Numbered from the stretch's first letter, positions 1,064 through 60,768 are shown. The stretch is DNA of 64,000 nt from Minisyncoccia bacterium (GCA_041499075.1 JBGQJN010000001.1:10388-74387), one strand, 5' to 3'. Notes: a model not told the origin generated them from the sequence alone. Numbers and translations: made by a program.

Positions 1064-1498
1064 TCAAAGTAATCTGTTTAGCTCCTTATCCAGCGCCGCA
1101 TTCACGAGACGGTCGGCACCGCGATTTTTTTCGCGAGGTATGTGCTTAAAAAATACATCACCAAAGTCAACCTTGAGATTCCAGAGCTCCAAAAAATGCT
1201 TTTGTATAGTCTTATCCATAATCTTGTAATGACCGTTGAGCTGACGTTCAATCAATTCGCTGTCCAGATGGACTTCTACTGATGCTCGGCCGACAGCTTC
1301 TTTGCCTGCCAATTGTTTGAGTTTTTTCAAGGCAAAAATCACCGCTTGGTATTCGGCATCATTATTGGTGGTTTCCCCGATGTACTCGCTGTATTCCTTC
1401 TTCAGCGATTTGTCGGCTGCTTCTATTACCACGCCGATCGCCGCCGGTCCGGGGTTCCCACGCGATCCCCCATCTGTATGAATTATGTATTTAGTCAT
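1064..1498 (-). CDS. rnhA: Ribonuclease HI
   Basis: N-terminus IHTDGGSRGNPGPAAIGVV is the RNase H type-1 signature; 144 aa. Confidence 0.8.
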   Translation of the reverse strand: MTKYIIHTDGGSRGNPGPAAIGVVIEAADKSLKKEYSEYIGETTNNDAEYQAVIFALKKLKQLAGKEAVGRASVEVHLDSELIERQLNGHYKIMDKTIQKHFLELWNLKVDFGDVFFKHIPREKNRGADRLVNAALDKELNRLL

Positions 1499-2628: not shown

Positions 2629-3627
2629 TTATACCAAATTTTCGTCTATGGTTTCCAATACCTTTCGCTTAAGATTGTAGCCATTGCCATACTCAAGCAT
2701 GCCCAAGTAAGAATCGGCAACTTCTTTTTTAACACCACAAGAAATCTTTTTAAACATTCGTCTTCTAGTTGTAGTCCTCAAAACTCTGTGATCTGGAAAA
2801 TTGACCCAGCCGAGAAAATCTACACCGGAAGTTATTGTTCTAATTGAGATTTTGTCTTGATGTAATTTCAGATGAAGTTTTCTATCTAAGAACTCCCCTA
2901 TCCTAGATAGAGCCAACCGAAGCCAAACTTTATCTTTGGATAAAACAACAAAGTCGTCAGCATAACGGATATAATATTTGGCACCAAGTTCATGCTTAAT
3001 GAACTGGTCAAACTCATTCATATAAATATTTACAAAAAGCTGGGAGGTCAGATTGCCCAAGGGTAAACCCCTACCATAACCAGCCGAGAAGCTATCAATA
3101 ACTTGCGACAAAAGCAATAATACATCCTGATCGGAAACATATTGAGATAATATGTTTTTCAAAATGACGTGATTAATATTTTCAAAAAACTTTTTGATAT
3201 CACACTTGAGCGTCCAACAAGTTCGGGTGTTGTTACTACTGGCTTGGTAAGCAAAACTTCTGAAATGATTGATAGCTTTGTGCGTTCCCTTGTTTAATCT
3301 GCAGGAAAAAGAATCGGCCACAAAGACCCGATCAAAAAACGGATACAAAATTCTGTAGATAGCATGGTGAAGAAGACGATCTCGGACCGGCGCTTTGTGT
3401 ATATGCCTTGGTTTCGGATCAGAGATATTGAACGCTTGATATCCGCCGTGTTTATATGTATGATTGGCAAGATGCAATTGCAAACTTAATATATTATCCA
3501 TCAGGTTTAACTGAAAGTCCTGCACGTCACGCTTGTTTCGTTTACCTTTAACGAATTCTCGCCAAGCCTCTAGCAAATTATCAACACTAATTATATCCTC
3601 AAATTTATGAGCCAAAATAGTTTTCAT
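2629..3627 (-). CDS. Diversity-generating retroelement reverse transcriptase
   Basis: Contains LPLGNLTSQLFVNIY, where the DGR-specific SQ replaces QG in RT motif 4. Also has the YADDFVV catalytic motif and a DGR-RT-like N-terminus NLLEAWREFVKGKRNKRDV...PVRDRLLHHA. The start is placed at the internal MKTIL (3627); the 383-aa track ORF would overlap avd. Confidence 0.85.
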   Translation of the reverse strand: MKTILAHKFEDIISVDNLLEAWREFVKGKRNKRDVQDFQLNLMDNILSLQLHLANHTYKHGGYQAFNISDPKPRHIHKAPVRDRLLHHAIYRILYPFFDRVFVADSFSCRLNKGTHKAINHFRSFAYQASSNNTRTCWTLKCDIKKFFENINHVILKNILSQYVSDQDVLLLLSQVIDSFSAGYGRGLPLGNLTSQLFVNIYMNEFDQFIKHELGAKYYIRYADDFVVLSKDKVWLRLALSRIGEFLDRKLHLKLHQDKISIRTITSGVDFLGWVNFPDHRVLRTTTRRRMFKKISCGVKKEVADSYLGMLEYGNGYNLKRKVLETIDENLV

Positions 3628-3648
3628 TTCAATAATCCATCTTCTAAG

Positions 3649-3658
3649 CCCCCCCCCC
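3649..3658. repeat. C10/G10 homopolymeric tract in the divergent avd-RT intergenic region
   Basis: Ten consecutive C lie 9 nt upstream of the avd ATG and 21 nt upstream of the RT ATG (opposite strand). Confidence 0.9.
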
Positions 3659-3667
3659 AGGCCTTCA

Positions 3668-4009
3668 ATGTCCATTATCCAAAGATTTGTCGCGGCATAC
3701 AAGCTTTGGCAAGAGTACATCAGCCACTTTCCGAAAAAATCTCGATATACGCTTGGAGGCAAAATTGACTCTCTTTTCATAGATACCGCAGAACTGATGT
3801 TTACTGCAAGTTATCTCACAAAAGACAAGAAACTGCCATATATTCAAAAAGCGTTGGGCACTTTTGATTTATTAAAATTCTTTCTGCAAATAGCTTGGGA
3901 AATCGGATCAATGGATAACAAGAAATATGCTGCGTTATCTGAACCGCTTAGTGAAATAGGAAGAATGCTCGGAGCCTGGTACAAACAAACACAAACCCCG
4001 TCTAAATAG
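3668..4009 (+). CDS. avd: Avd-like accessory variability determinant (four-helix-bundle, 23S rRNA IVS-protein family)
   Basis: 113 aa with FPKKSRYTLGGKIDSLFIDTAELMF...LGTFDLLKFFLQIAWEIG, the pattern of the four-helix-bundle/Avd family. It lies between TR and RT on the opposite strand. Confidence 0.7.
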   Translation: MSIIQRFVAAYKLWQEYISHFPKKSRYTLGGKIDSLFIDTAELMFTASYLTKDKKLPYIQKALGTFDLLKFFLQIAWEIGSMDNKKYAALSEPLSEIGRMLGAWYKQTQTPSK

Positions 4010-4511: not shown

Positions 4512-5120
4512 CTACTTGCGGACAGCAGCGAAGCGGCAGCCGCCACTCCACCCGCCGTCGCTCCAGCCCAGGAACAGCCCGCGCTCCGAGCCGCCCCCGA
4601 TGAGGCAAGGCACGCTGCGGAAGCCGCTGCTATCCTGCCACACGGAGCCAAGAGCGAAGATTGGGAACTCGCGCTGCTTTTCCGGGTAGGTGACACCGAA
4701 GGCCAGTAGCTCAAGGAGAATCGCCGGACGCATGCCCTTTGACTCGAGGTCTTTGAGCACGTCGTCAGTCGACATATTCCGCCCATAGTGAACGAGCTCG
4801 ATGACGACATCCTGCTGGCCGCTGCCTTGGATCGGGAAGTGGTCGGCGTTGATGTCCTCATTCGCCCAGTCGTACTTGCCGGCCACGATCATCTCCTTGA
4901 GGGACTGGCCGTAGTTGACGACGACCTTGTAGCAGTTCTCGGCCACTCCGACCGCCGCGTCGATCAGCTTCAGAACGAACTCGTCGGTCAGCCGCTTGAT
5001 TGTGTCTTCGGACAGGCCGAGGATCGCTTCCTCCGCCTGGCGCAGCTTGACCGCGCCGATGATCCGAGTGGTGATGGTTGATACGAACCCGAACGCCGAA
5101 CCGATCGCTGACTTTGCCAT
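4512..5120 (-). CDS. DGR target protein (202 aa; C-terminal variable region, likely C-type-lectin-fold ligand-binding domain)
   Basis: C-terminus ...WQDSSGFRSVPCLIGGGSERGLFLGWSDGGWSGGCRFAAVRK is encoded by VR. GC content (~60%+) is well above the surrounding ~45%. Confidence 0.7.
   Translation of the reverse strand: MAKSAIGSAFGFVSTITTRIIGAVKLRQAEEAILGLSEDTIKRLTDEFVLKLIDAAVGVAENCYKVVVNYGQSLKEMIVAGKYDWANEDINADHFPIQGSGQQDVVIELVHYGRNMSTDDVLKDLESKGMRPAILLELLAFGVTYPEKQREFPIFALGSVWQDSSGFRSVPCLIGGGSERGLFLGWSDGGWSGGCRFAAVRK
4516..4649 (-). repeat. DGR variable repeat (VR) at 3' end of target gene
   Basis: See the TR entry. VR covers the last ~44 codons of the 4512..5120 ORF and runs to its stop codon. 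Confidence 0.85.
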
Positions 5121-8423: not shown

Positions 8424-9215
8424 TTATTGTTTTGTTAAAACTAGCGGGCCGGACTTGGTGATGGCAACCGTGTGCTCAAAATGGGCGGCAAAAGAAGCGT
8501 CATAGGTAACGTAGGTAAAGCTATTGCCGGCACGCTTAACTCGCCAATCGCCGACGGAAACCATCGGCTCGATGGCTACGACCATGCCTTCTTCCAGCCT
8601 GACACCTTCATTTTCAGAACCGTAGTTCGGAACTTGCGGTTCCTCATGAAGCTTGCGACCGATACCGTGACCGACTAGATCACGTATTACGCCAAAACCA
8701 CTTCTCTCCACTACCGCCTGCACGGCATGGCTTACTTTGCCAAGCCGATTACCGACCTTAGCTTCATTGATACCGGCATTAAGAGATTCTTTGGTCACAT
8801 CAAGTAAACGGTGGAGCCTGGGATTAAGTTTAGCCCATAGCTTATAATCCGTCTCGCCTAGAACCGGCAGGGTAATAGCACTATCAAGATAAAGTCCTTT
8901 GTAAACTATACCCATATCCAAACTAACGACTTCGCCTTCTTTGAGTATACGTTTGGAGGGTACGCCGTGTACCACCTCTTCGTTGATTGATACACAAAGT
9001 GCAGCCGGAAATCCGTCGTAACCGAGAAAAGCGGCTTTAACCGGCTTGCCACTTTCTTTGGCGTAAAACAAAATAAGCTCGCGTGCGAGCTTATCAAGAT
9101 CTTGAGTGGCAATCCCCGGTTTAACTTCTTTGGCTAACTTGTCCAATATTTCTGCCAGTATCCTGCCACCCTCACGCATTATTTGGATTTCTTCTGGAGT
9201 TTTTAGATTGATCAT
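8424..9215 (-). CDS. map: Methionine aminopeptidase type I
   Basis: 263 aa with metal-ligand motifs of the MetAP pita-bread fold (HGIGRKLHE). Confidence 0.85.
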   Translation of the reverse strand: MINLKTPEEIQIMREGGRILAEILDKLAKEVKPGIATQDLDKLARELILFYAKESGKPVKAAFLGYDGFPAALCVSINEEVVHGVPSKRILKEGEVVSLDMGIVYKGLYLDSAITLPVLGETDYKLWAKLNPRLHRLLDVTKESLNAGINEAKVGNRLGKVSHAVQAVVERSGFGVIRDLVGHGIGRKLHEEPQVPNYGSENEGVRLEEGMVVAIEPMVSVGDWRVKRAGNSFTYVTYDASFAAHFEHTVAITKSGPLVLTKQ

Positions 9216-9877
9216 TGGATGTTTTTCATTATATTCTCGGATATTTTTTGGGCCTCATCTTGGCCATTGACTTCAAAAACCTTATAACCTTTCTGCCGCA
9301 AATAATCAAGTACCGGTTCGGTTTCTATCTTATAGACTTCGTATCTTTCGCTTATTATATCCGGCTTATCAAGCTCTCTAGTTACAAGAAGTGAACCATC
9401 TTTGGGACAAGTGGTCATGCCCTCATACTCTGGTAAGTCCGGAATCGGGTGGCGATTAGCTTGGCAGATACGCCTGGCTGAATTGCGTTTTATCGACTCT
9501 TCTTTGCTCAATACAAGATGAAAGATTTTTATATTGTCATGACCGTATAGTTCTTCAAGCTCTGGCATAATATCTTTTGTTTCGGGCAGTGTACGCAATG
9601 AACCGGAGGTAGTAATACTCTTACCCTGCATAGCTAGTTCTCTGATCTCTTCCTTGAACCAACCAATGAATATGCTTGATGCGATCAATTCTCCGGCAAG
9701 CCATTTTCTTTTTTCTTCCTGCATCTTGGCATCATGAGGTTCGGCGTTTTTGAATTTAGCTTCTATTAATTTGGAGGTTTCTAAATGATAAAATCCTAAT
9801 TTCTCCGCCAAAAGATTCGCCTGGGTTCCCTTGCCGGATCCTGGTGGCCCGATAAAAACTACGACTTCCTTAGACAT
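9212..9877 (-). CDS. adk: Adenylate kinase
   Basis: GPPGSGKGTQ P-loop and a lid domain with Cys. Confidence 0.9.
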   Translation of the reverse strand: MSKEVVVFIGPPGSGKGTQANLLAEKLGFYHLETSKLIEAKFKNAEPHDAKMQEEKRKWLAGELIASSIFIGWFKEEIRELAMQGKSITTSGSLRTLPETKDIMPELEELYGHDNIKIFHLVLSKEESIKRNSARRICQANRHPIPDLPEYEGMTTCPKDGSLLVTRELDKPDIISERYEVYKIETEPVLDYLRQKGYKVFEVNGQDEAQKISENIMKNIQ

Positions 9878-9960: not shown

Positions 9961-11220
9961 CTAGTACTCGTACATAGATATTTGAGCATCTAGCGCTTTC
10001 ATGATTTCAAGGACGACGCTGACTACGATCAGTATTGAGGTGCCACCGATGGTAAGTATGGCAATGCCAGAAACGGCTCTGACAACCTGGGGCAAAATCG
10101 CGATTAAGCCCAAAAATACCGCTCCGACAAGGGTAACACGATTGAGAAGATGCATCAGGAATTGCGCTGTCGGCTGACCCGGACGGATGCCCGGGATGTA
10201 GCCGCCTTGTTTCTGAATGTTTTCGGAAATTGACTTGGGATCGAAAGTTACCGCTGTATAGAAATAGGTAAACAAAACTACCAACAGGAAATAAGAGATG
10301 TCGTAAGCTGTTTGATTCTGCACAAAGTTATTGAAAAATCTGGCCACGGTAGCAACAATATTGATCTTGGAGCCGCTGAAAAAATTAGCGATCATGCCCG
10401 GAAAAAGAAGAATAGACAAAGCAAAGATTATCGGCATCACGCCGGCATTATTGACGCGCATAGGCAGATAAGTAGACACCCCGCCGTAGACTTTATCGCC
10501 ACGTACACGCTTAGCGTAATTAATCGGAATATTGCGCTGGGCTTCAGTCAGATAGACGACTCCGGCAATGACAACCAGTCCAATAACAACGATTGCCACG
10601 TAGGTAAAAATTTGAGAGGAAGTGAAAGTAATAAGCGTCTCTCTGACAGTAGTCGGGAATCTGGAAACGATACCGGCAAAAATTAACAGCGAAACCCCAT
10701 TACCGATATTTTTTTCGGAAATTAGTTCGCCAAGCCACATCAGGAAAACCGAGCCGGCGGCAACAACTAAAAGAGAACTCGCCCAACCAAGCAATCCCAA
10801 ACTGCCGATTACGCCTTGGCGGGAGAGAATTATCATGAAGGCATAACCCTGGAGCATAGCCAAGGGCACAGTAATAACTCGGGAGTATTGGTTGAATCTC
10901 TGCCTGCCAGCCTCGCCTTCGTATTTATACATTTGCTCCAATGACGGGAAAATCATTGTCAAAAGCTGCATGATAATGGAGCCGGTTATATAAGGACCAA
11001 GACCAAGCATGGCAATAGAAAAATTGCTCAATCCGCCGCCAGTAAACGTGCTTATCAAGCCAAAAAGCTGGTTATTCTGAAGAAATGCCTTGAGTTTTAG
11101 CGGATCAACGCCGGGTATTGGTATAGCCGCAACCACGCGGAAAACTATCAGAAGCGCCAAAATAAAAATTACTTTATTGCGTAGATCGGGAATTTTAAAA
11201 ACTTTAAGTATTCTGTTCAT
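9961..11220 (-). CDS. secY: Preprotein translocase subunit SecY
   Basis: 419 aa with 10 transmembrane segments; position between rplO and adk. Confidence 0.9.
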   Translation of the reverse strand: MNRILKVFKIPDLRNKVIFILALLIVFRVVAAIPIPGVDPLKLKAFLQNNQLFGLISTFTGGGLSNFSIAMLGLGPYITGSIIMQLLTMIFPSLEQMYKYEGEAGRQRFNQYSRVITVPLAMLQGYAFMIILSRQGVIGSLGLLGWASSLLVVAAGSVFLMWLGELISEKNIGNGVSLLIFAGIVSRFPTTVRETLITFTSSQIFTYVAIVVIGLVVIAGVVYLTEAQRNIPINYAKRVRGDKVYGGVSTYLPMRVNNAGVMPIIFALSILLFPGMIANFFSGSKINIVATVARFFNNFVQNQTAYDISYFLLVVLFTYFYTAVTFDPKSISENIQKQGGYIPGIRPGQPTAQFLMHLLNRVTLVGAVFLGLIAILPQVVRAVSGIAILTIGGTSILIVVSVVLEIMKALDAQISMYEY

Positions 11221-23243: not shown

Positions 23244-23362
23244 AATAATAACCTTCTAACAAAAAAGTGAGAACCATGCAAGCCAGCGAGTGGGAATGGT
23301 TGCGGCTTATCTACGGGCGGGGTTTGACTAAAAAAGCTAATTCTGCTAATCTGTCTCCAACA

Positions 23363-23830
23363 ATGGAGAGCACACCCGAAACCAAATCTTACGAGCTAGC
23401 CTATCACTTGACGCCTGATATTGAAGAGAGTGAGGCCAGAAACAGAGTGCAGGAGCTCAATGATATAATAACGACCAGCGGCGGTTCAGTTTTAGTTGCC
23501 AAAGAACCGAGAAAGATACATTTGTCTTACTCCGTTAAAAGCAAAAATTATGCTTACTTCGGGATAATGGACTTCCAGGCGGCCAGTGACTCGATAGACA
23601 AGATAAACAACCAGATGAAGCTTCAGAATTCCATCTTACGTTATTTGTTAGTTAAGAAGCCGGAATTCAAGGAAGTGCGAACTTTGGGTGAATATCGCGC
23701 TCGAGCTAGAGTCAAAAAGACTTATGAACCTGCGCCGACAGAAGCCCGCAAAAGCGCACCCAAAGAAAAAACGGCGGAAGAAAAAGCTCAATTAGATGAG
23801 GAACTGGCAAAAGTAATAGAAGGATTATAA
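23363..23830 (+). CDS. rpsF: Ribosomal protein S6
   Basis: KSYELAYHL...YAYFGIMDFQA pattern; the start is chosen at the internal MEST. Confidence 0.8.
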   Translation: MESTPETKSYELAYHLTPDIEESEARNRVQELNDIITTSGGSVLVAKEPRKIHLSYSVKSKNYAYFGIMDFQAASDSIDKINNQMKLQNSILRYLLVKKPEFKEVRTLGEYRARARVKKTYEPAPTEARKSAPKEKTAEEKAQLDEELAKVIEGL

Positions 23831-23834
23831 CAAT

Positions 23835-24368
23835 ATGAATCTAAACAAAGTTTTCTTAATCGGCCGGCTGGCCGCAGATCCGGAATCGCGTACAACACCA
23901 TCGGGGCAGACCGTGACTACTTTAAGATTGGCCACAAATCGCGTTTGGAATAACAGAACTACTGGCGAGAAACAAGAACAGGTTGAGTTTCACACCGTGA
24001 TTGCCTGGGGTAATCTCGCCGAAATATCCTCCAAATACTTACGCAAAGGCCAGCTGGCGCTTTTTGAAGGCCGGATACAGACAAGGTCATGGCAAGGCCA
24101 AGATGGTGTCAAGCGTTATCGCACCGAGATCGTAGCCGACGGCTTACAGTTGGGACCCAAGGCCAGCAATATGCCTGGTAGTTATACGCCAAGGGACTCA
24201 ACATCGGATCAGCAAGTCCAGAGCAATAAACCAGCTTCCGCCGCTAGCACAATAAAAGAAGAAGATATTCCGGTTATCAACGAAGACTCCCCTATTACCA
24301 GCGATCCGGTTATAGCCGATAGCGAAGTGGAGGAAAGTGAAATTAATCTTAAGGATATACCTTTTTAA
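23835..24368 (+). CDS. ssb: Single-stranded DNA-binding protein
   Basis: OB-fold N-terminus LIGRLAADPESRTTPSGQTVTTLRLATNR...FHTVIAWGNLAE and an acidic C-terminal tail ending DIPF. Confidence 0.9.
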   Translation: MNLNKVFLIGRLAADPESRTTPSGQTVTTLRLATNRVWNNRTTGEKQEQVEFHTVIAWGNLAEISSKYLRKGQLALFEGRIQTRSWQGQDGVKRYRTEIVADGLQLGPKASNMPGSYTPRDSTSDQQVQSNKPASAASTIKEEDIPVINEDSPITSDPVIADSEVEESEINLKDIPF

Positions 24369-24369
24369 T

Positions 24370-24582
24370 ATGGTTTGCATTTGTTGCCAGGAAAAAATTA
24401 ATCACGTTGATTATAAAAATACGGACATCCTCCGTAAGTTTGTCTCGGGCCAATTTAAGATCTCCTCTTCTGCCCGCACCGGCCTGTGCCAGAACCATCA
24501 GCGCATGGTCGCCAACGCCGTTAAACTCGCCAGATATATGGCACTGATGCCATATACGAAGTTACAGACATTGAAAAAATAG
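24370..24582 (+). CDS. rpsR: Ribosomal protein S18 (copy 1)
   Basis: MVCICCQEKINHVDYKNTDILRKFVS...; starts 1 nt after the ssb stop. Confidence 0.9.
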   Translation: MVCICCQEKINHVDYKNTDILRKFVSGQFKISSSARTGLCQNHQRMVANAVKLARYMALMPYTKLQTLKK

Positions 24583-24586
24583 TTGA

Positions 24587-24650
24587 CGAGTGTAGGCGAG
24601 GAAATACTGAGGCCAACAGGCCGAACGTGTCGCTCGCCCCTCAATTTTTC
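24587..24650 (+). repeat. Intergenic repeat family 2 (one ~30-nt unit GGCGAGGAAATACTGAGGCCAACAGGCCGAACGTG in stem-loop), directly after rpsR stop
   Basis: Shares TTGACGAG...GGCGAGGAAGTACTGAGGCTAGCAGGCCGAACGTGCCGCTCGC with 56848-56925 and, inverted, 29400-29521. Confidence 0.6.
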
Positions 24651-24867
24651 TTTCAACATCTGTCCCCGGCAAATAATATATTGATTTTCTCATTTCCCTG
24701 GATAAAAAATCATACCCCTTCCGCTACGCAGAGCCCCGACATTAGTCAGGGCTCTGCTTTGCCACATCCTAATTTATTTATCAGCGGAAGATATCAAAAA
24801 TCAATATTTATTTGTACGGCACCATATGGATGACGAGGATCAGAGAGTGTCGCTCTAGATCTCGCTA

Positions 24868-24896
24868 CAAAAACAAAACCGACATGCGATGTCGGC
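24868..24896 (-). terminator. Rho-independent terminator after 125-aa island gene
   Basis: ccgacatgcgatgtcgg hairpin followed by a U-run on the minus strand. Confidence 0.5.
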
Positions 24897-24900
24897 AGGA

Positions 24901-25278
24901 TTATTGAGCTAGAGCAACCTCGGGCTCGGGATCTGGCAATTGATCGGATTGCAAGAACTTACCAAGCAAAACTTCTCTCTCGAGACATGCTAAAGTTTTA
25001 TGGCCATAATTAACACCTTCATCATACCAAGGGATACCTTCTTCGTAAATCTCACGGGTGAATCCAGCGGCAATTAATTTTTCTTTATCAGAACTATACA
25101 ATTTATCCCAGATGACTTTGGCTTCTACATCAAAAGCTCTAGCTAGCGGGCAATTACATGTACCATGGCTACCGACACCTTTAAGCGCCTCTTCTTTTCT
25201 AGTAAATAACAGTCTAATCCATTGCTGCACATTTGCCGCTAATTTTTTAAAGATCCGCTCAAGCTCTGGATCCATCAT
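24901..25278 (-). CDS. Hypothetical protein (125 aa) with Cys/His cluster (HGTCNCP...H...C)
   Basis: ORF in the island between the rpsR copies; no recognisable family. Confidence 0.4.
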   Translation of the reverse strand: MMDPELERIFKKLAANVQQWIRLLFTRKEEALKGVGSHGTCNCPLARAFDVEAKVIWDKLYSSDKEKLIAAGFTREIYEEGIPWYDEGVNYGHKTLACLEREVLLGKFLQSDQLPDPEPEVALAQ

Positions 25279-25520
25279 CTTCCGGCTCCTTGTCTGATTG
25301 ATTATCTACCTGGAACTTTACACCATCTAAAATCTTCCGCAAGCCAAATATAAAAGTGCCAAAAGGCACTTTTATATTTGTTAGTTTCAGATGAATGACG
25401 AAAATCAGAGGACATCGCTTTGGCCTGGGGTATCCTTGGATGGGAACAGAAGCGGGTCACCGATACATTAGACGCTAGTATATGCGGACTAAACAACTGT
25501 TTAATCCCCTATCTAAAATA

Positions 25521-26348
25521 TTATGCCCTGTGTATTTCTAATAGATCGCTTAGAACACTGTCCAAGTACATTTTGATTTGTAGAATCTCCGACCGTCCCT
25601 CTCTGTGGCTGTGAGCCGAAAGTGATCCACGTTCATAAACAGCCCTGACTAAACGAGGCACACTTTCATCAACTATTTGAGCAGCCATTTTCGGAGCTTC
25701 CATGGCCGTATCGGGGATTTCTCTGATTTTGAGAATATAGTGTACTTTCTGTTTCATTGTTGGCTGCTTTTCCCCTTCTTCAAATTTAAAGCCAGGGATC
25801 GCCTCAACTTCGGCATCGGGAGCCAAGTGATCCAAAACCTCACGAAGAACCTCTCGCAACTCAGTAGCCGTACCTCGGTATGATGCTCGGTTTTCCTGCA
25901 GGTCAGCAAGTGCTTGTTTATACGATATCGCCGCTCCAGGAACAACCTGTTCAAGCATATTTAGTATAACTTCATCCTGCTGGGAAGTATTTTTTGTGGC
26001 TGTTCCTTGAGTCCCTCCGGAGAGTCGTTGACTATTTAAATATTCGCGAGATATTTCTGCCTCAGCAAGATTTGCTCCAATTTTTGCAAAAACTTTTTTG
26101 TATACTGTTACCGAGGTGCGGGCACTGGCCATTCTCATCAAATCTTGCATCTGCTTGTCCAGCACCTCCGTTGCAACCATGCCAACAACCAGTTCGGGCC
26201 GTAACTCTCGAAAATATCGTTGCACAAAATATCGGATTCGGTTCTGCAGATTAGCAGAACTGATTTGAATAGAATTGGCACGATTTACTCTGGAAAGAAT
26301 CAGTTTTGTTTCGCGCACAATGGAAAGAAAGGTGTCGCTTTCCGACAC
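25521..26348 (-). CDS. Hypothetical protein (275 aa), predicted all-helical; C-terminal R-x5-H motif (VYERGSLSAHSH) reminiscent of HEPN-type RNase/abortive-infection domains
   Basis: ORF in the island; motif-level resemblance only. Confidence 0.35.
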   Translation of the reverse strand: MSESDTFLSIVRETKLILSRVNRANSIQISSANLQNRIRYFVQRYFRELRPELVVGMVATEVLDKQMQDLMRMASARTSVTVYKKVFAKIGANLAEAEISREYLNSQRLSGGTQGTATKNTSQQDEVILNMLEQVVPGAAISYKQALADLQENRASYRGTATELREVLREVLDHLAPDAEVEAIPGFKFEEGEKQPTMKQKVHYILKIREIPDTAMEAPKMAAQIVDESVPRLVRAVYERGSLSAHSHREGRSEILQIKMYLDSVLSDLLEIHRA

Positions 26349-26384
26349 CCCAGGAGATGTGTTAGCAGATTTAATTCTAGCGGC

Positions 26385-26712
26385 GCTTTTTGAAGGCCGG
26401 ATTCAGACAAGATCATGGCAAGGCCAGGATGGCGTCAAACGCTACCGCACCGAGATTGTAGCCGATGGTTTACAACTGGGACCCAAGGCAAGTAATCCAA
26501 GCACTGCGAATTATCAATCAAACAATCAGACATCGAGACCATCCTCCTACACCTCTCCTTCGCATAAAGCTCCGGATGAGCAAAGCAAGTCTTCGGTAAA
26601 GGAAGAAGACATTCCCGTTATCAATGAAGACTCTCCCATTACCAGCGATCCGGTTATTTCTGATAGTGATGTGGAAGAAACGGAAATTAATTTAAAAGAT
26701 ATACCGTTCTAA
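26385..26712 (+). pseudogene. Diverged duplicate of the ssb 3' half (lacks OB-fold N-terminus)
   Basis: About 85-90% nucleotide identity to 24060-24368. Encodes LFEGRIQTRSWQGQDGVKRYRTEIVADGLQLGPKASN...EEDIPVINEDSPITSDPVI...INLKDIPF. The unrelated upstream frame supplies an ATG. Confidence 0.7.
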
Positions 26713-26814
26713 TCAACGAATAGCGAATATGTACGAATATACCAATATACGAAATGGATTAATTAGTACTTTCGTAAATTAGTATAAATTCGTAATTCGT
26801 TGATAGCGACAAGC

Positions 26815-27024
26815 ATGTGTATTTGTTGCCAGGAAAAAATTAATCACGTTGATTACAAAAATACGGACATCCTCCGCAAGTTTGTTTCCGGTCAATTTAA
26901 GATTTCTTCTTCGGCCCGCACCGGCCTGTGCCAGAATCATCAGCGCATGGTCGCCAACGCCGTCAAACTCGCCCGGTATATGGCGTTGATGCCTTATACC
27001 AAGTTACAAACTATAAAAAAATAA
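26815..27024 (+). CDS. rpsR: Ribosomal protein S18 (copy 2, intact paralog; many synonymous differences vs copy 1)
   Basis: MCICCQEKINHVDYKNTDILRKFVSGQFKISSSARTGLCQNHQRMVANAVKLARYMALMPYTKLQTIKK. Confidence 0.75.
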   Translation: MCICCQEKINHVDYKNTDILRKFVSGQFKISSSARTGLCQNHQRMVANAVKLARYMALMPYTKLQTIKK

Positions 27025-27063
27025 AAACTTCACTTGCCCCATACTTATTACCATAAGTGTGGG

Positions 27064-27104
27064 GTGGCCCTGATGCCGTACACCAAACTCCAGACTATAA
27101 AGAA
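27064..27104 (+). pseudogene. Third remnant of the rpsR 3' end (last ~13 codons LMPYTKLQTIKK*)
   Basis: ctgatgccgtacaccaaactccagactataaagaaataa matches copy 1 at 24540-24582 and copy 2 at 26983-27024, with synonymous changes. Confidence 0.6.
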
Positions 27105-27146
27105 ATAAAAAAAACCGCCAACCAGCGGATTTTTTATTTCTTATTT

Positions 27147-27629
27147 TTAGTAACCTCTCTGATCTTGCTGGAACCTTTCTTCTATTTTTCTTTTTTCGTT
27201 TTCTAAGTCGCTGATTTTCTTTGAGTATTCATCTATCTGCCTCCCGAGATGCGCTTTCATCTCTTGCGTTACAGCTCGGCTATCTTTAAGAGCACTTGCC
27301 CAATCCTCATATTCCCTTCTCCTATTTGGATCCGTAGCATCAACCGGTGACAGTGCGGCATTAAGTTCGTATTCCTTGTCCAATATTTTCCTCATATCTG
27401 GGCCCCTCGATATTTCTAGCCTTCGCTTAAAATCCTCAATTTCAGCAGGGATTTCTGATAATCTCTTTTCGAGCTTAGGTTTTTCCACCACAAATTTCCT
27501 CTTGGCTTCTTCTAGCTTGGCTTGTCTAGCCGCTTCACGTTCTTTTCTAGCTACTTCTTCCATCGGCTCTGGTTCTTTTTCCGCTTCTGCTTTGGGCTTT
27601 ATACCTAAAAATTCTTTAAATGTTGGCAT
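27147..27629 (-). CDS. Hypothetical coiled-coil protein (160 aa, Lys/Glu-rich)
   Basis: ORF; no recognisable family; downstream of recA. Confidence 0.4.
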   Translation of the reverse strand: MPTFKEFLGIKPKAEAEKEPEPMEEVARKEREAARQAKLEEAKRKFVVEKPKLEKRLSEIPAEIEDFKRRLEISRGPDMRKILDKEYELNAALSPVDATDPNRRREYEDWASALKDSRAVTQEMKAHLGRQIDEYSKKISDLENEKRKIEERFQQDQRGY

Positions 27630-27678
27630 GTTCCCAATCTACCACTAGTGTTTTTTTTTGCAATTCGGTTATCAACAT

Positions 27679-27720
27679 AGCTCCGTATATAATTAGCATA
27701 TGCTAATTATATACGGAGCT
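27679..27720. promoter_or_regulatory. Perfect 42-bp palindrome (candidate operator)
   Basis: agctccgtatataattagcata|tgctaattatatacggagct; between the recA stop and the 27147..27629 start. Confidence 0.5.
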
Positions 27721-27746
27721 ATCAGTTAAAGGCATTAATCTAAAGC

Positions 27747-27872: not shown

Positions 27873-28907
27873 CTATGCCTCCTTGACTGCCGCCGCTTTG
27901 CGGACGGCACCAAGTATCTCCTTCTCAATCTTGGGATTTTCTTTGAGGAATTGGCGGGCGCCTTCAATGCCCTGACCGAGCTTCTGTTCACCGAAGTTAT
28001 ACCAGGCACCGGCCTTAGCAACCACGCCGAGAATCACACCGGTATTAACCAGATCGGCATGTCGGGAGATGCCCTCGTTATAGAGAATATCAAACTCTGC
28101 CACACGGAATGGCGCGGCAACTTTGTTTTTGACGATTTTGACTTTGACTCGATTGCCGATAATTTTCTCGCCGGATTGTATCTGCGCGGCTCGGCGGATC
28201 TCAATTCTGACTGAAGCATAAAATTTAAGAGCAAGGCCACCGGTTGTCGTTTCCGGATTGCCGAACATAACACCAATCTTGTGCCTTATTTGGTTTATAA
28301 ACAAAACCGTGGTGTTGGTTTTGGAAACCACGCCGGTCAGTTTGCGTAAAGCATGTGACATCAGCCGCGCTTGTAGGCCCATGTGCTGTTGGTCCATTTC
28401 ACCTTCAATCTCGGCACGCGGTGTGAGCGCGGCCACGGAATCTACTACTACAAGTTGAATCCCACCAGACCTTACCAAAGTTTCTACTATCTCAAGCGCT
28501 TGCTCGCCGTTGTCCGGTTGAGAAATTAAAAGATCGTTAACCCTGACGCCGATTTTTTTGGCATATTCCGGGTCAAGCGCGTGCTCGGCATCGACATATG
28601 CCGCCACACCGCCGGCCTTCTGGACTTCAGCTACGAGATGCAAAGCCAAAGTCGTCTTACCGGAACTTTCCGGACCATAGACTTCTACCACGCGTCCTCG
28701 TGGAATACCGCCAACACCCAATGCCAGGTCCAGCGAGATCGAGCCGGTTGGTATAACGTCGACATCAACTCTCCGCGCGTCACCAAGTTTCATAATCGAG
28801 CCGTCACCGTATTTTTCCTGTATCTCCCTGACAGCGAGATCCACGCTCCTGTTACTTAGATCAGACTTACTCTGCTTCTCCTCCTTCTTATTTTTTTCTT
28901 TAACCAT
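27873..28907 (-). CDS. recA: Recombinase A
   Basis: GPESSGKTT Walker A; L1/L2 loops; 344 aa. Confidence 0.95.
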
Positions 28908-44172: not shown

Positions 44173-44550
44173 CTAGAATGCGCCACCGCTCAAGCTAGAT
44201 ACAACGTAGTTTGCGGTAGCAAGTATCAAACCAACAGCCACCACCACCACTATTCCTATGAAACCATGAAGTATCGTGCCTCTGGCTTCCTCCGCCTTTT
44301 TCGCGTCACCTCGGGCAAGCATGTATTTCAAACCACCATAAACTATGAAAATAACTCCGATCGTGACACCAACTACCATCAAATATGTAGCAGCCTGGTT
44401 GATGATGCCAACAATACCATTTAATGTTACTGCTCCCGTTGTAGAACCAGGATTAGGAATAGGCACCTTTGCTTGTGCTAATGCTAATAACGGTAAGGCA
44501 AACCATGCCAACGGACTTGCCATCTTAATCATTTTTTTAATTTTATTCAT
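44173..44550 (-). CDS. VirB2/TrbC-like pilin (125 aa: signal peptide plus two hydrophobic helices separated by a charged loop)
   Basis: LNGIVGIINQAATYLMVVGVTIGVIFIVYGGLKYMLARGDAKKAEEARGTILHGFIGIVVVVAVGLILA; this architecture is typical of T4SS pilins. Confidence 0.55.
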   Translation of the reverse strand: MNKIKKMIKMASPLAWFALPLLALAQAKVPIPNPGSTTGAVTLNGIVGIINQAATYLMVVGVTIGVIFIVYGGLKYMLARGDAKKAEEARGTILHGFIGIVVVVAVGLILATANYVVSSLSGGAF

Positions 44551-45704: not shown

Positions 45705-46835
45705 TTACGGGCCTTTTAAGCTCAGTATACTTTGGATTAAGCTGACAAATCCTTTGCCAATCAATACAATTGCCAGACCGATGACGGCATAGGTCAAAGC
45801 TTTTTTGCCCAACTCATAACGTTTAGGGCTACCGCCGGAAGTTAGCAATAAAATACCGGCATAAATTATTACAATCACCGCAAGCGGTATTGAAAGATTA
45901 AAAATCCAGGTACCAATGATGTTGACTAGATCTTGAAAGGTACTGATACCGATGGGGTTTTGTAAAGTAAAGGTTTGGTTGCCACCGCCAGTTGTGCCAC
46001 CGCCAGTTGTGCCACCGCCACCACCACCACCAGCAGCAGCACAGCCTGTACAATTATCGGTGCCCGCTCCCGGCACCACAACACAAACATTACTTTGACA
46101 TTCCTTGTGGCTTTGCGTCGACACCTCTTTTCCGCATAAAGTGCTGTCGCTTAGTTTCGCACATTGTGTCCTATCCGTGCAACCAGTCGTATTGACACAG
46201 GTACTGTCGTTTTTGGAATCACAAATATAAACAGTTTTCCCAACGGCATCGGGTCCGGTACACGCGAAGATGTTGTATGTGCCCGATGTTAGTTTTATAG
46301 AATACTGGCCGCTCGAGGTAAGAATTGTACAATTGTTTGTAAAAAAGCCGCCGGTTTTGCAAACCACAACATAGGCTTTTACTGGCATGCTATCCCCGGC
46401 TGTAAAACCTCCTATATTGGAATCTATAAGATCAGATGGTGTAACCGTAACAGAACTGCCATAAGGCGTCGGCTTATTCTGCGTCATATTTATAGTATTG
46501 GTTGCATACCTATTTCCTAGACCGTTTTTTGCTTGGGGCGGTGCATCGCTTAAATCAAGTGAATAGGCTTGGTAAAAATCATAGTAAACATAAAACTTAT
46601 TAGAACAAATGGTACCGTCAACGCTACAATAGCCATCGCATGTTCCACCGTTAACAAAGCCGCCCATAGTCACTTGGCTTGTGATCGTAAGCGGTCGGTT
46701 AAAAGACAAATTGCCCGAAGGAAGATTTACTTGAATATTTGCCGTACAATTAGCACTTGCAATTTTTACCGGAATCAAAACAAACAAAAAACCCGCGATT
46801 AATGTAACGATTAAAATTTTATAAGTATTCCGCAT
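45705..46835 (-). CDS. Secreted Cys-rich protein with Gly-rich linker and C-terminal VirB2/TrbC-like two-helix module
   Basis: Signal peptide; AAAGGGGGGGTTGGGTTGGG linker; C-terminus LAVIVIIYAGILLLTSGGSPKRYELGKKALTYAVIGLAIVLIG. Confidence 0.55.
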   Translation of the reverse strand: MRNTYKILIVTLIAGFLFVLIPVKIASANCTANIQVNLPSGNLSFNRPLTITSQVTMGGFVNGGTCDGYCSVDGTICSNKFYVYYDFYQAYSLDLSDAPPQAKNGLGNRYATNTINMTQNKPTPYGSSVTVTPSDLIDSNIGGFTAGDSMPVKAYVVVCKTGGFFTNNCTILTSSGQYSIKLTSGTYNIFACTGPDAVGKTVYICDSKNDSTCVNTTGCTDRTQCAKLSDSTLCGKEVSTQSHKECQSNVCVVVPGAGTDNCTGCAAAGGGGGGGTTGGGTTGGGNQTFTLQNPIGISTFQDLVNIIGTWIFNLSIPLAVIVIIYAGILLLTSGGSPKRYELGKKALTYAVIGLAIVLIGKGFVSLIQSILSLKGP

Positions 46836-47963: not shown

Positions 47964-50900
47964 TTAAAACCCGGGATTAGCAGTACAATAAATAATCTTG
48001 GTTGCCCCGGCCTTGGTTTGATTATAACCTAGCTTAATATCGCTGTCTCCATTGCAAATAGTATGCGCGTTATCATCGTAAAGACACTCCCACTTGCGGA
48101 CATTATTAGTGCCATCACAACTTTTTTCAGGAGGCAGACAATTAGCACTGTCGGCACAGGCACCGGCAGCAGTCCATCCTCCATTATAACCGGCATAAAT
48201 ATTTCTGACTTGAGAACCGCAGGTTCCAGCGGCTATTACATTGATAAAGTTCGCGCCGATGCAGATACTCGCATCGGCATTTATGGGATTAGTTAGCCAA
48301 GCGCGCGTAACCATACATCTATTAAGAATGCTGTCCCAACGGCCTCCGGCAGCAGTACAACTTAGCGAGCTATTTTGAATTGGACAGCCTCGACTATTCT
48401 GGTTGGCGGTGTCAACGTTAAGCTGCATTAAACCGAATGAAGACGGTGGATTGTCAAATGATACCGCACCGACATTACAGGAAGATTCGGCCAATATTAT
48501 CGCTTTCAAAATATTAGCCGTCGCCGCTCCGTTGTTGGTACCATACTTATTAGCAGAAGCGGCATATTGGGCGCTACAGTTGCCGTTACTACATGCTGTT
48601 GATTGGCCCTGACAAAGATTTAAACTGCTAAACATGCAAATTGCTCCCGTTGTTGTTCCCGTTCCTGTCCCTGTGCCTGTTCCAGTTCCTGTCCCAGTAG
48701 TTGTCTGGCTGGGATTAGTACAAATAACCGTGTTCCAGTTTTGCCCAAATAAGCTATTGCCCGCAATAGATTTGAGTACGGAATTGGTGATCATCCATGC
48801 CGCAAAAATTATTATCAGCCCCCAAGTAGTATTTTTAAAAAACGTTTTGCCGGTCCCGACCCAGCCAGGATTGAATCCGCCGAGTAATATCATTGTTCCG
48901 GCGATCAGATACATCAGCACCGCGATTGCCGGCACAAGCGTGAAAAGAACAAAATTAATCACCCGGCTCAATAGAGCCAGGATATCGCATGGTTGGCATG
49001 GCTGAGCTTCAGCGGCAGTATAGCCAGGAATTGGAACAGGATTGCCGCTAGAATCAATGGCTGAATAGTGGCCGCAAGGTACCAATGATGTTTTAGTTCC
49101 CGCCGCGTTGGTAGTCGCACCCGTACCGGTCCCCGTCCCTGTACCTGTACCTGTACCTGTACCCGTGCCTGTCCCCGTACCCGTGGTAGCTGCCTGAGCA
49201 ATATTAGGTCCAAAGGCAATGTCCGCTGCCGCTTTTTGCGCAGGATTACTAGAATCGGTAGCTTCCACGCCAACGCCATTGGCAGGCACAGCGGCTTGGG
49301 CAATATTAATAATATTTCGAGGGAAATTTACGGCTATGGTCCCGGTAATTAACCCATCCGAACTTAAATTGAAACCAGTAGGTAAATTTCCGCGTATTAT
49401 CTTCCAGGTATAGGGTGCAGTTCCATTTTGAACTGTCAGTTGAGCCTGATAACTAGTTGCCTGCGCAACGTTAATGAGCTTAGACGGCGATTTGGGTGTT
49501 GCTAATGATATTGTTCTGCTTGTGTCAGGGATAAATAATGAGTTGCCGGGTATAGACAGGTCGGGCGAAGAAATCTTAAACCTAATGGTCGTCGATTTAT
49601 CAGCATTAGCGCCGACAAGCAACCATTCTACCCAAGAACCATTGAGACTGGCCTCATCGAATCCGGCCCAGCTATTCTCAAGTGACCAGTTGCCACCGCC
49701 ATCTGTGGTCAGCGGGGCAGCAATGCCTAAATCTCCGACCGGCGTACAGCCCAGAGAGCTGCCATTTTGTTCGGCGCATATCTGAAGTGTGGCGTTGGCA
49801 GGTGCACCCGTTAGATTAAGCCGCCAAGAATCTATATTCCAAAATCCGGGATTTCGAAATGGCTTGGTGATATTAGTAATCGTCAACTTAGGACCACAGG
49901 CTGAACCGCCGGTAAGGCCGCAAATGTAGTCACCCGCAGGCGTCAGTGTCGCGCTGGAATCATAGAGTCCGAACTGTCCGCCAGCATCAAGTAGATTCCA
50001 GACGAAAGCGTATTTGACTCCCGAGTCCACGGCCACTTGTGTCACGATTGCCACTTTACTTTCGATATCCTGCCTGCTTCCTTGATCAAAACCGTACTCA
50101 CCGATTACCAGATTGCCGGAATTCTTACCGGCAGAGGAGATAACACTTCTTATCAAACTGAGGTCGTTCCTTAATTGAGTGCCATCGTCGCCATTGTAAA
50201 GTGCGTTAATTGATTCGTAAGATGAATAGGAGTAATAGTCGGCGTTAACTGCCGGTATGACATCGTAGAGAACGCTTAGTAAACCCCGGTCTTTCAAATT
50301 ATGAACAATATTGAATTCCACGGCACTGAAAACATTGGAGGCACCAGATGATTTTATGCCTGCCGTGCGCGCATTGATCCATTTCTCGAAACCAGCCATA
50401 GAGTTCAGGTAGCTCGGGCAACCGGCAGCAGTAGCACCAAATGCCGCACCGCAATAGATGTCGTTATCACCCTCCCAGTTTGAAATGATAAATGTTTTGT
50501 TGGGATAATTGGTGGCCAGATAACTTGCAAAATTAGCATATTCGTTTTGAATACGCTGGGTATTAGCTGCTGTGAAAAAGCTAGGATTGAGATAATTCTT
50601 AGTAACACAATCAGCAAAAGAAACACCGTCATAAGCAGTAATCATAATCACATTAAAGTTTGGGTCGCTCAATAGTGTATTGAAATCCGCCCTCCGCGCT
50701 AAACTTGTAAGGGAAAAATTGCTAATGCAACTCCCGCCACCGTAATCCTTGTCTGATTGCGGACCCATTACTATTCTTACGTTTTTAGGTCCTAAATCCT
50801 GCAATAGCATATCACCAGCCTGCAGCATGCCACTAGGCTGATTGCTTATTCTGCCGGCCCAAAAATATGCCCCGACATTATTGGCAGTAAGGGCTAAGGA

Positions 50901-50978
50901 GTGTGTTATGCCAACAGAAAAGACTCCAACAACAATTAGGAGGGTAACCGCTAAGATTTTAGATGCATTATTATTCAA
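47964..50978 (-). CDS. Giant multidomain surface protein (1004 aa): GH5-like (clan GH-A) glycoside hydrolase, Ig-like/cadherin-like domain, (Thr-Gly)n linker, VirB2/TrbC-like two-helix module, second linker, C-terminal lytic transglycosylase (SLT) domain
   Basis: NWEGDND and GEYG catalytic-region motifs; GNLPTGFNLSSDGLITGT; two TGTGTG... linkers; FVLFTLVPAIAVLMYLIAGTMILLGG...WGLIIIFAAWMI; ILKAIILAESSCNVGAVSFDNPPSSFGLMQLN (SLT E-S...GLMQ motif). Confidence 0.6.
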   Translation of the reverse strand: MNNNASKILAVTLLIVVGVFSVGITHSLALTANNVGAYFWAGRISNQPSGMLQAGDMLLQDLGPKNVRIVMGPQSDKDYGGGSCISNFSLTSLARRADFNTLLSDPNFNVIMITAYDGVSFADCVTKNYLNPSFFTAANTQRIQNEYANFASYLATNYPNKTFIISNWEGDNDIYCGAAFGATAAGCPSYLNSMAGFEKWINARTAGIKSSGASNVFSAVEFNIVHNLKDRGLLSVLYDVIPAVNADYYSYSSYESINALYNGDDGTQLRNDLSLIRSVISSAGKNSGNLVIGEYGFDQGSRQDIESKVAIVTQVAVDSGVKYAFVWNLLDAGGQFGLYDSSATLTPAGDYICGLTGGSACGPKLTITNITKPFRNPGFWNIDSWRLNLTGAPANATLQICAEQNGSSLGCTPVGDLGIAAPLTTDGGGNWSLENSWAGFDEASLNGSWVEWLLVGANADKSTTIRFKISSPDLSIPGNSLFIPDTSRTISLATPKSPSKLINVAQATSYQAQLTVQNGTAPYTWKIIRGNLPTGFNLSSDGLITGTIAVNFPRNIINIAQAAVPANGVGVEATDSSNPAQKAAADIAFGPNIAQAATTGTGTGTGTGTGTGTGTGTGTGATTNAAGTKTSLVPCGHYSAIDSSGNPVPIPGYTAAEAQPCQPCDILALLSRVINFVLFTLVPAIAVLMYLIAGTMILLGGFNPGWVGTGKTFFKNTTWGLIIIFAAWMITNSVLKSIAGNSLFGQNWNTVICTNPSQTTTGTGTGTGTGTGTGTTTGAICMFSSLNLCQGQSTACSNGNCSAQYAASANKYGTNNGAATANILKAIILAESSCNVGAVSFDNPPSSFGLMQLNVDTANQNSRGCPIQNSSLSCTAAGGRWDSILNRCMVTRAWLTNPINADASICIGANFINVIAAGTCGSQVRNIYAGYNGGWTAAGACADSANCLPPEKSCDGTNNVRKWECLYDDNAHTICNGDSDIKLGYNQTKAGATKIIYCTANPGF

Positions 50979-56847: not shown

Positions 56848-56925
56848 ACGAGCACTTCGCCAGCTCAGCATAAACTCCGGCGAGGAAGTACTGAGGCTAG
56901 CAGGCCGAACGTGCCGCTCGCTTAT
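56848..56925 (+). repeat. Intergenic repeat family 2 copy directly after rpmE stop
   Basis: TTGACGAGCACTTCGCCAGCTCAGCATAAACTCCGGCGAGGAAGTACTGAGGCTAGCAGGCCGAACGTGCCGCTCGC. Confidence 0.6.
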
Positions 56926-60483: not shown

Positions 60484-60768
60484 CTATTCCCTGACGAGAT
60501 TCCAAACAAAGAAGGAGACAAAAGACATCAAAAAACATATGGCACCGAATGTGTCCTCGCGGGGAAATGGCAAGAGGTGCGTCAACGGTAGTTCAAGTGT
60601 TTCCGGATGAGTGGAGGCATTAACTGCAATATAGATCCAACCCAGCAATCCAAAAACAAACAAGGTTAATGAAAGTGAACGAATTATTTTTATATTATCT
60701 ATCCTCATATCTTTATTGTACCAGCATCTGCTTAATTGTCTGATAGGCAGGTTTTTGACTGCCGTCAT
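60484..60768 (-). pseudogene. Remnant of the kinase-like gene produced by tandem duplication (shares MTAVKN..QL.RCW.NKDM N-terminus with 58727..59413, then unrelated hydrophobic tail)
   Basis: 59330-59390 and 60710-60770 are about 85% identical. Confidence 0.4.

Follow-up and report, generated by a model that had tools for sequence, protein, structure and literature searches.

A stretch of 64,000 nt (64 kb; hereafter, the window) from Minisyncoccia bacterium GCA_041499075.1, an uncultivated bacterium known from a metagenome-assembled genome (MAG) and assigned to Candidatus Yanofskybacteria (Patescibacteria/Candidate Phyla Radiation, CPR), carries the 3′ portion of the ssb–rpsR genes, encoding SSB and ribosomal protein S18, on both sides of a 1.8-kb island, with a third, short remnant of rpsR next to the second copy. 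From left to right, the order is rpsF–ssb–rpsR copy 1, the island, ssb′ (a second ssb from codon 75 on), a 102-nt spacer, rpsR copy 2, 12 nt, a 28-nt hairpin, rpsR remnant 3, a terminator and, on the minus strand, p160 and recA. We consider it probable that this arrangement consists of two superimposed scars of imprecise recombination with DNA from sister lineages whose homology to the chromosome was confined to one side, a process that needs no site-specific recombinase. The locus appears to be a clean natural example of foreign DNA captured beside essential genes in a streamlined uncultivated CPR bacterium without mobile-element machinery; capture by one-sided homology has so far been documented chiefly at polymorphic-toxin loci and in laboratory experiments on transformation and conjugation. 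The gap between rpsR and recA in which the island lies is a hot spot of variable content in Candidatus Yanofskybacteria, and it turns over defence-like and other cargo across the whole family.

Anatomy and origin of the copies

The locus was compared with those of approximately 45 distinct Candidatus Yanofskybacteria lineages obtained from S18-centred scans of genome and metagenome collections. In all of these relatives the order is EF-Tu, p109, S6, SSB, S18, a variable gap, RecA and FtsK. In the window, the first gene of the operon is rpsF (23276–23830, plus strand), called as ribosomal protein S6 (PF01250) and in the conserved position. It is followed by the full-length ssb (23835–24368, plus strand; 177 aa; Pfam SSB, E = 1.8e-35) and by rpsR copy 1 (24370–24582, plus strand; S18 of 70 aa; Pfam Ribosomal_S18, E = 3.7e-20), which is coupled directly to ssb (TAAT ATG). 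On the other side of the island, ssb′ (26383–26712, plus strand) is the 3′ part of a second ssb allele, with an open frame from codon 75 to the stop and a match to positions 73–102 of the Pfam SSB profile. It is separated from rpsR copy 2 by an AT-rich palindromic spacer of 102 nt found in copy 2 only (26713–26814; inverted repeat I1, with 42-nt arms that are 76% complementary). Copy 2 (26815–27024, plus strand) is intact and encodes an S18 protein of 69 aa (Pfam Ribosomal_S18, E = 3.9e-20). Remnant 3 (27065–27108, plus strand) comprises the last 14 codons of rpsR and the stop; it starts with the TG of Met56, followed by ALMPYTKLQTIKK and the stop codon.

A search of the window for internal repeats and the Pfam matches (SSB, two S18 genes and the C-terminal part of ssb) bore out the claim of an earlier note on this DNA that three copies of gene 3′ ends surround a 1.8-kb island. 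The large copies can be aligned in three blocks, 24056–24170/26382–26496 (88%), 24253–24369/26597–26713 (84%) and 24376–24581/26818–27023 (90%), and the last 47 nt or so of rpsR form a three-copy family at 24539, 26981 and 27065. The duplication itself is as the note described it, with its start moved from 24060/26385 to 24056/26382; the third remnant, placed there at 27064–27104 with about 13 codons, also exists and extends over 27065–27108 with 14 codons. The direct repeat thus covers 24056–24582 and 26382–27024 (527 or 643 bp). It begins at an arbitrary point within ssb and ends exactly at the rpsR stop codon, where homology between lineages ceases. The copies are not collinear throughout: the SSB linker, located between the 88% and 84% blocks, cannot be aligned, and the spacer is restricted to copy 2. 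Identical runs of 35, 26, 23 and 21 nt are found inside the repeat, the 21-nt run being its left edge. An identical arrangement is carried by NCBI GCA_041486835.1 (100% over 12 kb), and a JGI contig has the same layout with 1 mismatch in 12 kb.

The differences between the copies are of the kind accumulated by functional genes. The two rpsR copies share 89.7% nucleotide identity, and their codon differences are 18 synonymous to 1 nonsynonymous. When ssb′ was compared with copy 1, the synonymous to nonsynonymous ratio was 14:0 in the OB part and 13:3 in the acidic tail. Remnant 3 differs from rpsR copy 2 at 9 nt, all of them synonymous (8 codons, 8:0). Random or in-place decay would give mostly nonsynonymous changes; since the differences are nearly all synonymous, the divergence must have arisen inside working genes of different lineages, and the pieces must have been united recently. 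As judged from these codon counts, therefore, the copies are foreign to one another, in agreement with the earlier view that they come from different lineages under purifying selection. The SSB linker and the ssb–rpsR spacer differ between copies to the degree seen between species, and the ssb′ linker is nearer to two SSBs of other Yanofskybacteria, P0122 (76%) and P0123 (72%), than to copy 1 (68%). Among the sampled lineages, no rpsR is closer to either copy than the other copy is (89.7% vs. at most 86%), which indicates that donor and recipient were sister lineages. Genome, metagenome and protein collections yielded no closer relative of either allele, the best match in SSB-linker and exact look-ups being 76%. 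Ribosomal protein genes have been reported to be exchanged among Patescibacteria (PMC12455944), and the ssb–rpsR finding supports that report.

Remnant 3 is followed by a bidirectional terminator common to rpsR and p160 (27109–27140; terminator scan, stem at 27115–27128), an ancestral feature conserved with L006, L007 and L017. Remnant 3 and the terminator are collinear with these three lineages (79% over 75–82 nt), and p160 is also in the ancestral layout. This collinearity indicates that remnant 3 is the displaced original end of the resident gene. The p160 gene (27147–27629, minus strand) encodes a coiled-coil protein that is semi-conserved in the gap, with homologues directly 3′ of rpsR in L004, L006, L087 and L096, and is not part of the cargo. 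The right-hand conserved flank of the hot spot is recA (27873–28907, minus strand; Pfam RecA_N and RecA_C; conserved synteny).

Two observations concern palindromes in this region. AT-rich palindromic spacers of one family occur in the rpsF–ssb and ssb–rpsR gaps of the window (26713–26814) and of L004 (about 9413–9443), L081 (658–733 and 1281–1355), L083 (1171–1223), L084 (1122–1179) and L127 (1049–1132 and 1697–1784); they may be a regulatory element of the ssb–rpsR operon or an element similar to the repetitive extragenic palindromic (REP) sequences. A perfect 46-nt palindrome with 23-nt arms and no loop is located between p160 and recA (27677–27722), and the non-coding DNA flanking it is 88–90% identical to that of L096.

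The rpsR–recA hot spot and the scars in other lineages

Across the relatives, the gap between the convergent rpsR and recA genes varies from 36 bp to 5.9 kb. Empty sites, in which recA comes within 36–83 bp of rpsR with nothing but a shared terminator between them, were found in L005, L007, L010, L079, L088/L089, L126 and L127. The cargo of the filled sites belongs to 73 unrelated open reading frame (ORF) families, including a restriction–modification pair, a radical-SAM enzyme, glycosyltransferases, RelA/SpoT and an AAA ATPase. The comparison with related genomes that the earlier note had called for thus uncovered many empty sites and different cargos at the same place. These findings argue against a simple tandem duplication and against a universally present island, the two outcomes named beforehand as contrary to an integration hot spot, and the proposal that at least two separate events occurred was supported. 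Two full rpsR copies were present in no related lineage. The only displaced 3′ ends in the window or in the relatives' loci are those of rpsR and ssb; no 3′-end remnants of other genes were detected. No recombinase or transposase was recognized among the ORFs of the island, which confirmed the earlier statement that it has no integrase, nor among the 46 ORFs scanned across the window or the 20 largest island ORFs of the relatives, and the window has no tRNA or tmRNA target. As a side observation, recA of L018 matches in two pieces (2683–3444 and 4795–4995) about 1.35 kb apart; this could be due to an intein or an insertion.

Displaced rpsR ends were found in three other lineages. In L081, rpsR is followed by a hairpin homologous to the one in the window and then by ALMPYTKGQTIKK and a stop codon (10 synonymous to 0 nonsynonymous differences); in L096, rpsR and the hairpin are followed by YTKGQTIKK and a stop codon (5:0). 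In L136, a 487-aa cargo gene abuts rpsR′, which begins at about codon 37, and only the right joint is visible. This rpsR′ has 6 synonymous differences from the empty-site allele of L079, a lineage recovered together with L136 from one groundwater sample; the two, L079 with an empty and L136 with a filled site, are the nearest to a before-and-after pair. Together with those in the window there are five displaced fragments with four start points: ssb codon 75 (window) and rpsR codons 37 (approximately; L136), 57 (window), 57 (L081) and 61 (L096). The remnants carry the amino acid variant of their own lineage (KLQTIKK vs. KGQTIKK), and their differences from the full copy are synonymous only. A single inherited, decaying scar is therefore unlikely, unless it was repeatedly refreshed by recombination with working alleles.

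The hairpins of the window, L081 and L096 are predicted to be stable (z from -3.5 to -7.2) and show compensatory changes between lineages. In L081 the hairpin family is dispersed, with five palindromes of about 28–36 nt (CCCnCACACnnAT..ATnnGTGTGnGGG) in 20 kb (2085–2116, 8623–8658, 8729–8758, 10219–10246 and 10326–10355), while in the 64-kb window the 28-nt hairpin is single-copy. Three other interpretations were tried and discarded. The remnant is not accounted for as stop-codon readthrough or as a small ORF: it shares the frame of copy 2 in the window, is shifted to the +1 frame in L081 and L096, and has no start codon in L096. A dif/Xer-like reading of the 28-nt hairpin was dropped, as its inner arm is opposite in orientation to the dif consensus. 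A diversity-generating retroelement (DGR), with a variable and a template repeat, was rejected because the differences are synonymous and not adenine-specific. A reverse transcriptase gene does exist in the window, 20 kb away.

Probable recombination with one-sided homology, and alternatives to it

The two joints were delimited by comparison with relatives. At joint J1 (26380–26382), where the island meets ssb′, homology to L069, the closest relative (83% at the nucleotide level), spans 25522–26382, starting from the stop codon of the nuclease gene carried by the island, and homology to ssb copy 1 begins at 26382, with an overlap of 0–3 nt. A distance of 34 nt separates J1 from the nuclease start downstream; the partner gene of a conserved two-gene module was removed and the nuclease was left alone. 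A joint with so small an overlap that cuts a conserved module is a point of breakage and joining rather than the end of an integrative element. Joint J2 is located at the 3′ foot of the 28-nt hairpin (27037–27064; CCCCATACTTAT TACC ATAAGTGTGGGG; DNA fold -9.6 kcal/mol, z = -3.5) and has no evident overlap.

The large scar would have been generated by a piece of about 2.3 kb of a sister genome that extended from the middle of ssb, across rpsR, into the hot-spot island of the donor. Of this island the incoming piece would have contained a 43-nt repeat, a non-coding stretch, p125 and the nuclease gene, with a break just upstream of the nuclease start. The piece would then have closed on itself into a circle of about 2.3 kb, with J1 as the closure joint, and a single RecA-type crossover of this circle into the resident ssb′–rpsR would produce an intact operon, the cargo and a second ssb′–rpsR beginning abruptly at the closure joint. 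The same map would be obtained if a linear fragment were anchored at one end (left or right) and joined illegitimately at the other, i.e., by homology-facilitated illegitimate recombination (HFIR). The data fit either copy as the resident one; a hint comes from the 43-nt repeat, which is native to this genome, and from the hairpin after copy 2, which is single-copy here but dispersed in L081. The small scar would be the earlier one: the rpsR allele would have been replaced and its right end joined without homology, so that the foot of the hairpin met the old gene at codon 57 and the old last 14 codons were left ahead of the old terminator. At a mere 83 nt, a circle would be too short for the small scar, and an illegitimate join would therefore be needed instead.

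Two features of the locus are those expected of one-sided homology. Homology is limited to ssb′–rpsR, with an overlap of 0–3 nt at the other joint, and a duplicated part of the anchor flanks the foreign DNA left and right, the duplication ending where homology does. The identical runs of 35, 26, 23 and 21 nt in the repeat could act as seeds for homologous pairing. The recA gene adjoins the site, and ORFs with a type IV secretion system (T4SS) pilin domain are present in the window. Across CPR the genes for competence are conserved; Saccharibacteria, the only group of these for which competence is known, have been shown to be naturally transformable (PMC10633639). Entry of the DNA by competence or through a T4SS is plausible.

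Several points weigh against this explanation. No parental genome, either donor or pre-insertion recipient, was found in any collection searched, and the polarity of the events and the circle are thus reconstructed from the map. A divergence of 10–16% between the alleles should greatly reduce homologous recombination. Since no circle can account for the small scar, a second sub-mechanism is needed. The overlap at J1 is below the 3–10 bp that are typical of HFIR joints. Finally, in three lineages (window, L081 and L096) the joint of the remnant coincides exactly with the 3′ foot of a homologous 28-nt hairpin, the window and L081 share the rpsR breakpoint to the nucleotide (codon 57), and L136 and L079 cease to differ close to that codon, a mosaic boundary. 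Random illegitimate joining does not predict recurrent joints at a hairpin foot. These joints may result from stalling of an exonuclease at the hairpin, from a REP-like join-point or from an enzyme that cuts at the foot, and they could point to a more specific mechanism.

Experimental and natural precedents exist for recombination of this type. In E. coli, when homology was one-sided, 56 of 60 recombinants had a partial duplication of the homologous locus (109–950 bp in 14 sequenced clones), which was attributed to RecA-dependent single crossover after degradation and recircularization of the incoming molecule (Amarir-Bouhram et al. 2011, PMC3240628). Canonical HFIR, described by de Vries and Wackernagel 2002, Prudhomme et al. 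2002, and Meier and Wackernagel 2003 (as cited in PMC3240628), couples insertion with deletion and uses 3–10 bp of microhomology. The ssb–rpsR locus shares with these single-crossover (Campbell-type) and HFIR reactions one homologous anchor, one joint with little or no homology, no element-encoded recombinase and, with the E. coli recombinants, an anchor duplicated around the foreign DNA (109–950 bp there and 527 or 643 bp here). It differs from canonical HFIR in that a duplication took the place of the deletion, and from all of them in being a natural case in an uncultivated CPR bacterium with an anchor of essential genes that are 10–16% diverged. RecA dependence was established in the experiments; in our case a role for RecA is suggested by analogy. 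An HFIR-like process has been put forward to explain the sequential displacement of 3′ ends at the Rhs, contact-dependent inhibition (CDI) and type VI secretion system (T6SS) effector–immunity loci (Kirchberger et al. 2017, PMC5361080; Jackson et al. 2009 and Poole et al. 2011, cited there). In those arrays, as here, orphaned 3′ fragments, left by alleles that recombined in the conserved upstream part, line up behind a full-length gene, and there is no integrase. However, the fragments there are toxin tips and immunity genes kept by selection, whereas here the same S18 and SSB sequences are repeated, the cargo is downstream of the gene and not inside it, and the displaced ends seem to be neutral scars. 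No toxin/immunity pair is present at the ssb–rpsR locus, which resembles the polymorphic-toxin displacement arrays in mechanism and is not a member of them.

The earlier note had proposed that the copies are attachment sites: elements encoding a tyrosine or serine recombinase would target the 3′ part of ssb–rpsR and bring a replacement 3′ end, the island would be decayed or mobilized in trans, and the copies would be serial attL/attR remnants. Integrases that act at the 3′ end of a conserved gene and supply a replacement are well known, as in e14 or phage 21 at icd, islands at tRNA or tmRNA genes, and SCCmec at rlmH. The layout seen here, with the hybrid gene intact at the left end and the original 3′ end displaced to the right, is the classical one of icd-type insertions, which keep the gene intact, leave a synonymously diverged 3′ fragment at the far end of the insert and may leave several remnants after serial insertions. 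The empty and filled sites in relatives, the breakpoint shared by two small scars and the location of the nuclease module elsewhere beside a large serine recombinase (L162–L164) or near a tyrosine integrase (L076) are also in favor of this proposal. However, the hallmarks of icd-type insertions are a terminally placed recombinase gene, a fixed crossover core and intact termini, and none of the three was found here. No recombinase was detected in any of the three ORF sets scanned, J1 cuts an operon with an overlap of 0–3 nt and shows no intact element terminus, and the breakpoints (ssb codon 75 and rpsR codons about 37, 57, 57 and 61) form no single core, only two of the five being coincident. 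Furthermore, the replacement segment of 527–643 bp covers two genes and is far longer than usual att-linked segments, and the 21-nt identity at the edge is unexceptional, being shorter than the internal runs of 35, 26 and 23 nt. The attachment-site proposal was therefore not supported, and we regard it as unlikely. A hairpin-directed step, confined to the small scars, is likewise doubtful. In such a step the REP-like 28-nt hairpin would be cut or recombined at its foot by a trans-acting HUH/RAYT-like nuclease, gyrase or a Xer-like recombinase, which would fit the exact joints at the 3′ foot of homologous hairpins with compensatory changes in three lineages and the dispersal of the family in L081. 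REP sequences reportedly serve as join-points of chromosomal duplications (Shyamala, Schneider and Ames 1990, as cited in PMC11784200), and a dispersed palindromic repeat at the join-point of a duplication is common to both cases; unlike there, where two REP copies recombine, the hairpin foot is joined here to the coding sequence of a foreign or old allele. However, no HUH, RAYT or extra Xer gene was present among the window ORFs scanned, the rpsR side of L096 shares no core sequence with the other two, the hairpin occurs only once in the window, and exonuclease stalling at a stable hairpin gives the same picture without a specific enzyme. The bolder version, that the rpsR tail and the 28-nt hairpin constitute a genuine recombination site at which a trans-acting host enzyme (an HUH/RAYT-like nuclease, or a Xer- or integron-like recombinase acting on the folded hairpin) repeatedly joins foreign DNA at the foot to codon 57, seems improbable to us. 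If it were true, the rpsR tail and hairpin would be an integrase-less, targeted site of island capture in Yanofskybacteria that always restores the gene.

Two further explanations can be given little weight. According to one, ssb′–rpsR was duplicated in tandem in situ long ago, both copies were kept by selection as two S18 genes, and the cargo was inserted between them after they diverged. The open frames of rpsR copy 2 and ssb′ and the mutual closeness of the two rpsR copies (89.7% vs. at most 86% among the sampled lineages) would agree with this history, which is nevertheless very unlikely. No related lineage has two full rpsR copies, the linker and spacer differ as they do between species, and the cut operon at J1 is left unexplained. 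No function is plausible for the truncated ssb′ or for the 14-codon remnant, and still only synonymous changes are seen in the OB part of ssb′ and in the rpsR tail. The other explanation is an assembly chimera of two co-occurring strains, conceivable for a MAG with alleles that are about 90% identical. This is extremely improbable, since neither J1 nor J2 has a shared overlap of k-mer length with the sequence joined there that could mis-join contigs; in addition, the NCBI MAG and the JGI contig agree but for 1 nt in 12 kb, and Logan assemblies also contain the nuclease protein.

Cargo of the island and other features of the window

The island (24583–26381) contains two minus-strand genes, a 43-nt repeat and a structured non-coding stretch. 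Its GC content is like that of the flanks, and an anomaly of composition was thus discarded. The nuclease gene (25521–26348, minus strand) is full length and belongs to the pP_pnuc_1 ("pPIWI-associating") family (Pfam PF18165, E = 5.2e-14, 52.5 bits with a cutoff of 26.3; PADLOC Aga_Nuclease, E = 1.7e-9). The earlier note had listed both genes of the island, on the opposite strand, as hypothetical. Its homologues have 258–304 aa, and in 6 of 6 other contexts (L069, L070, L071, L076, L159 and L162) the nuclease directly follows a homologous partner gene of 169–197 aa, which is absent from the 64-kb window. The partner protein matched no Pfam or PADLOC family. No Argonaute or PIWI gene adjoins the nuclease in the window, in L069–L077 or in L159–L164, and a literature search for "pPIWI-associating nuclease" found no paper. 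The nuclease–partner pair is found next to a large serine recombinase and restriction–modification genes in L162–L164 and near a tyrosine integrase in L076. The two genes are apparently an uncharacterized, mobile two-gene module.

The second gene, p125 (24901–25278, minus strand), is an ORFan cargo gene with its own terminator (24878–24896; terminator scan). Among 5.8 billion proteins it had no homologue other than itself, and it matched no Pfam, PADLOC or NCBIfam entry. Viral contigs contained no relatives of S18, the nuclease or p125, and a tblastn search with the nuclease against plasmid and phage collections produced no match; a phage or plasmid origin of the cargo was consequently rejected.

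The 43-nt repeat (24595–24637) is located directly after rpsR copy 1 and is preceded by TTGACGAG at the stop codon. A copy that is 91% identical (56879–56921) stands after rpmE, where TTGACGAG again directly follows the stop codon and precedes the repeat; none of the relatives' loci contained this repeat. The structured non-coding stretch of 175 nt (24642–24816) is 73% identical to 5098–5264 of L083, minus strand, and the predicted fold of 24583–24900 has a z-score of -4.75. The stretch includes a promoter-like TTGATT-N17-TAAAAA followed by a hairpin (24727–24757). Rfam gave no match at the gathering threshold in the whole window, and only chance-level matches (E up to 5) for 24300–27300.

Elsewhere in the window, three ORFs with T4SS-pilin domains (44173–44550, 45705–46835 and 47964–50978, all on the minus strand), the largest of which also has an SLT transglycosylase domain, look like a conjugation-like cluster encoding a patescibacterial T4SS. 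A reverse transcriptase ORF (2629–3780, minus strand; RVT_1, E = 1.5e-21) lies beside the phosphoglycerate kinase gene, with an RNase H/RVT_3-like ORF nearby (1064–1498, minus strand). This reverse transcriptase may belong to a DGR or a retron, elements that are common in CPR. Two tandem GH5/GH39-like glycosyl hydrolase paralogues (59331–60467 and 60713–62782, minus strand) are similar in their C-termini.

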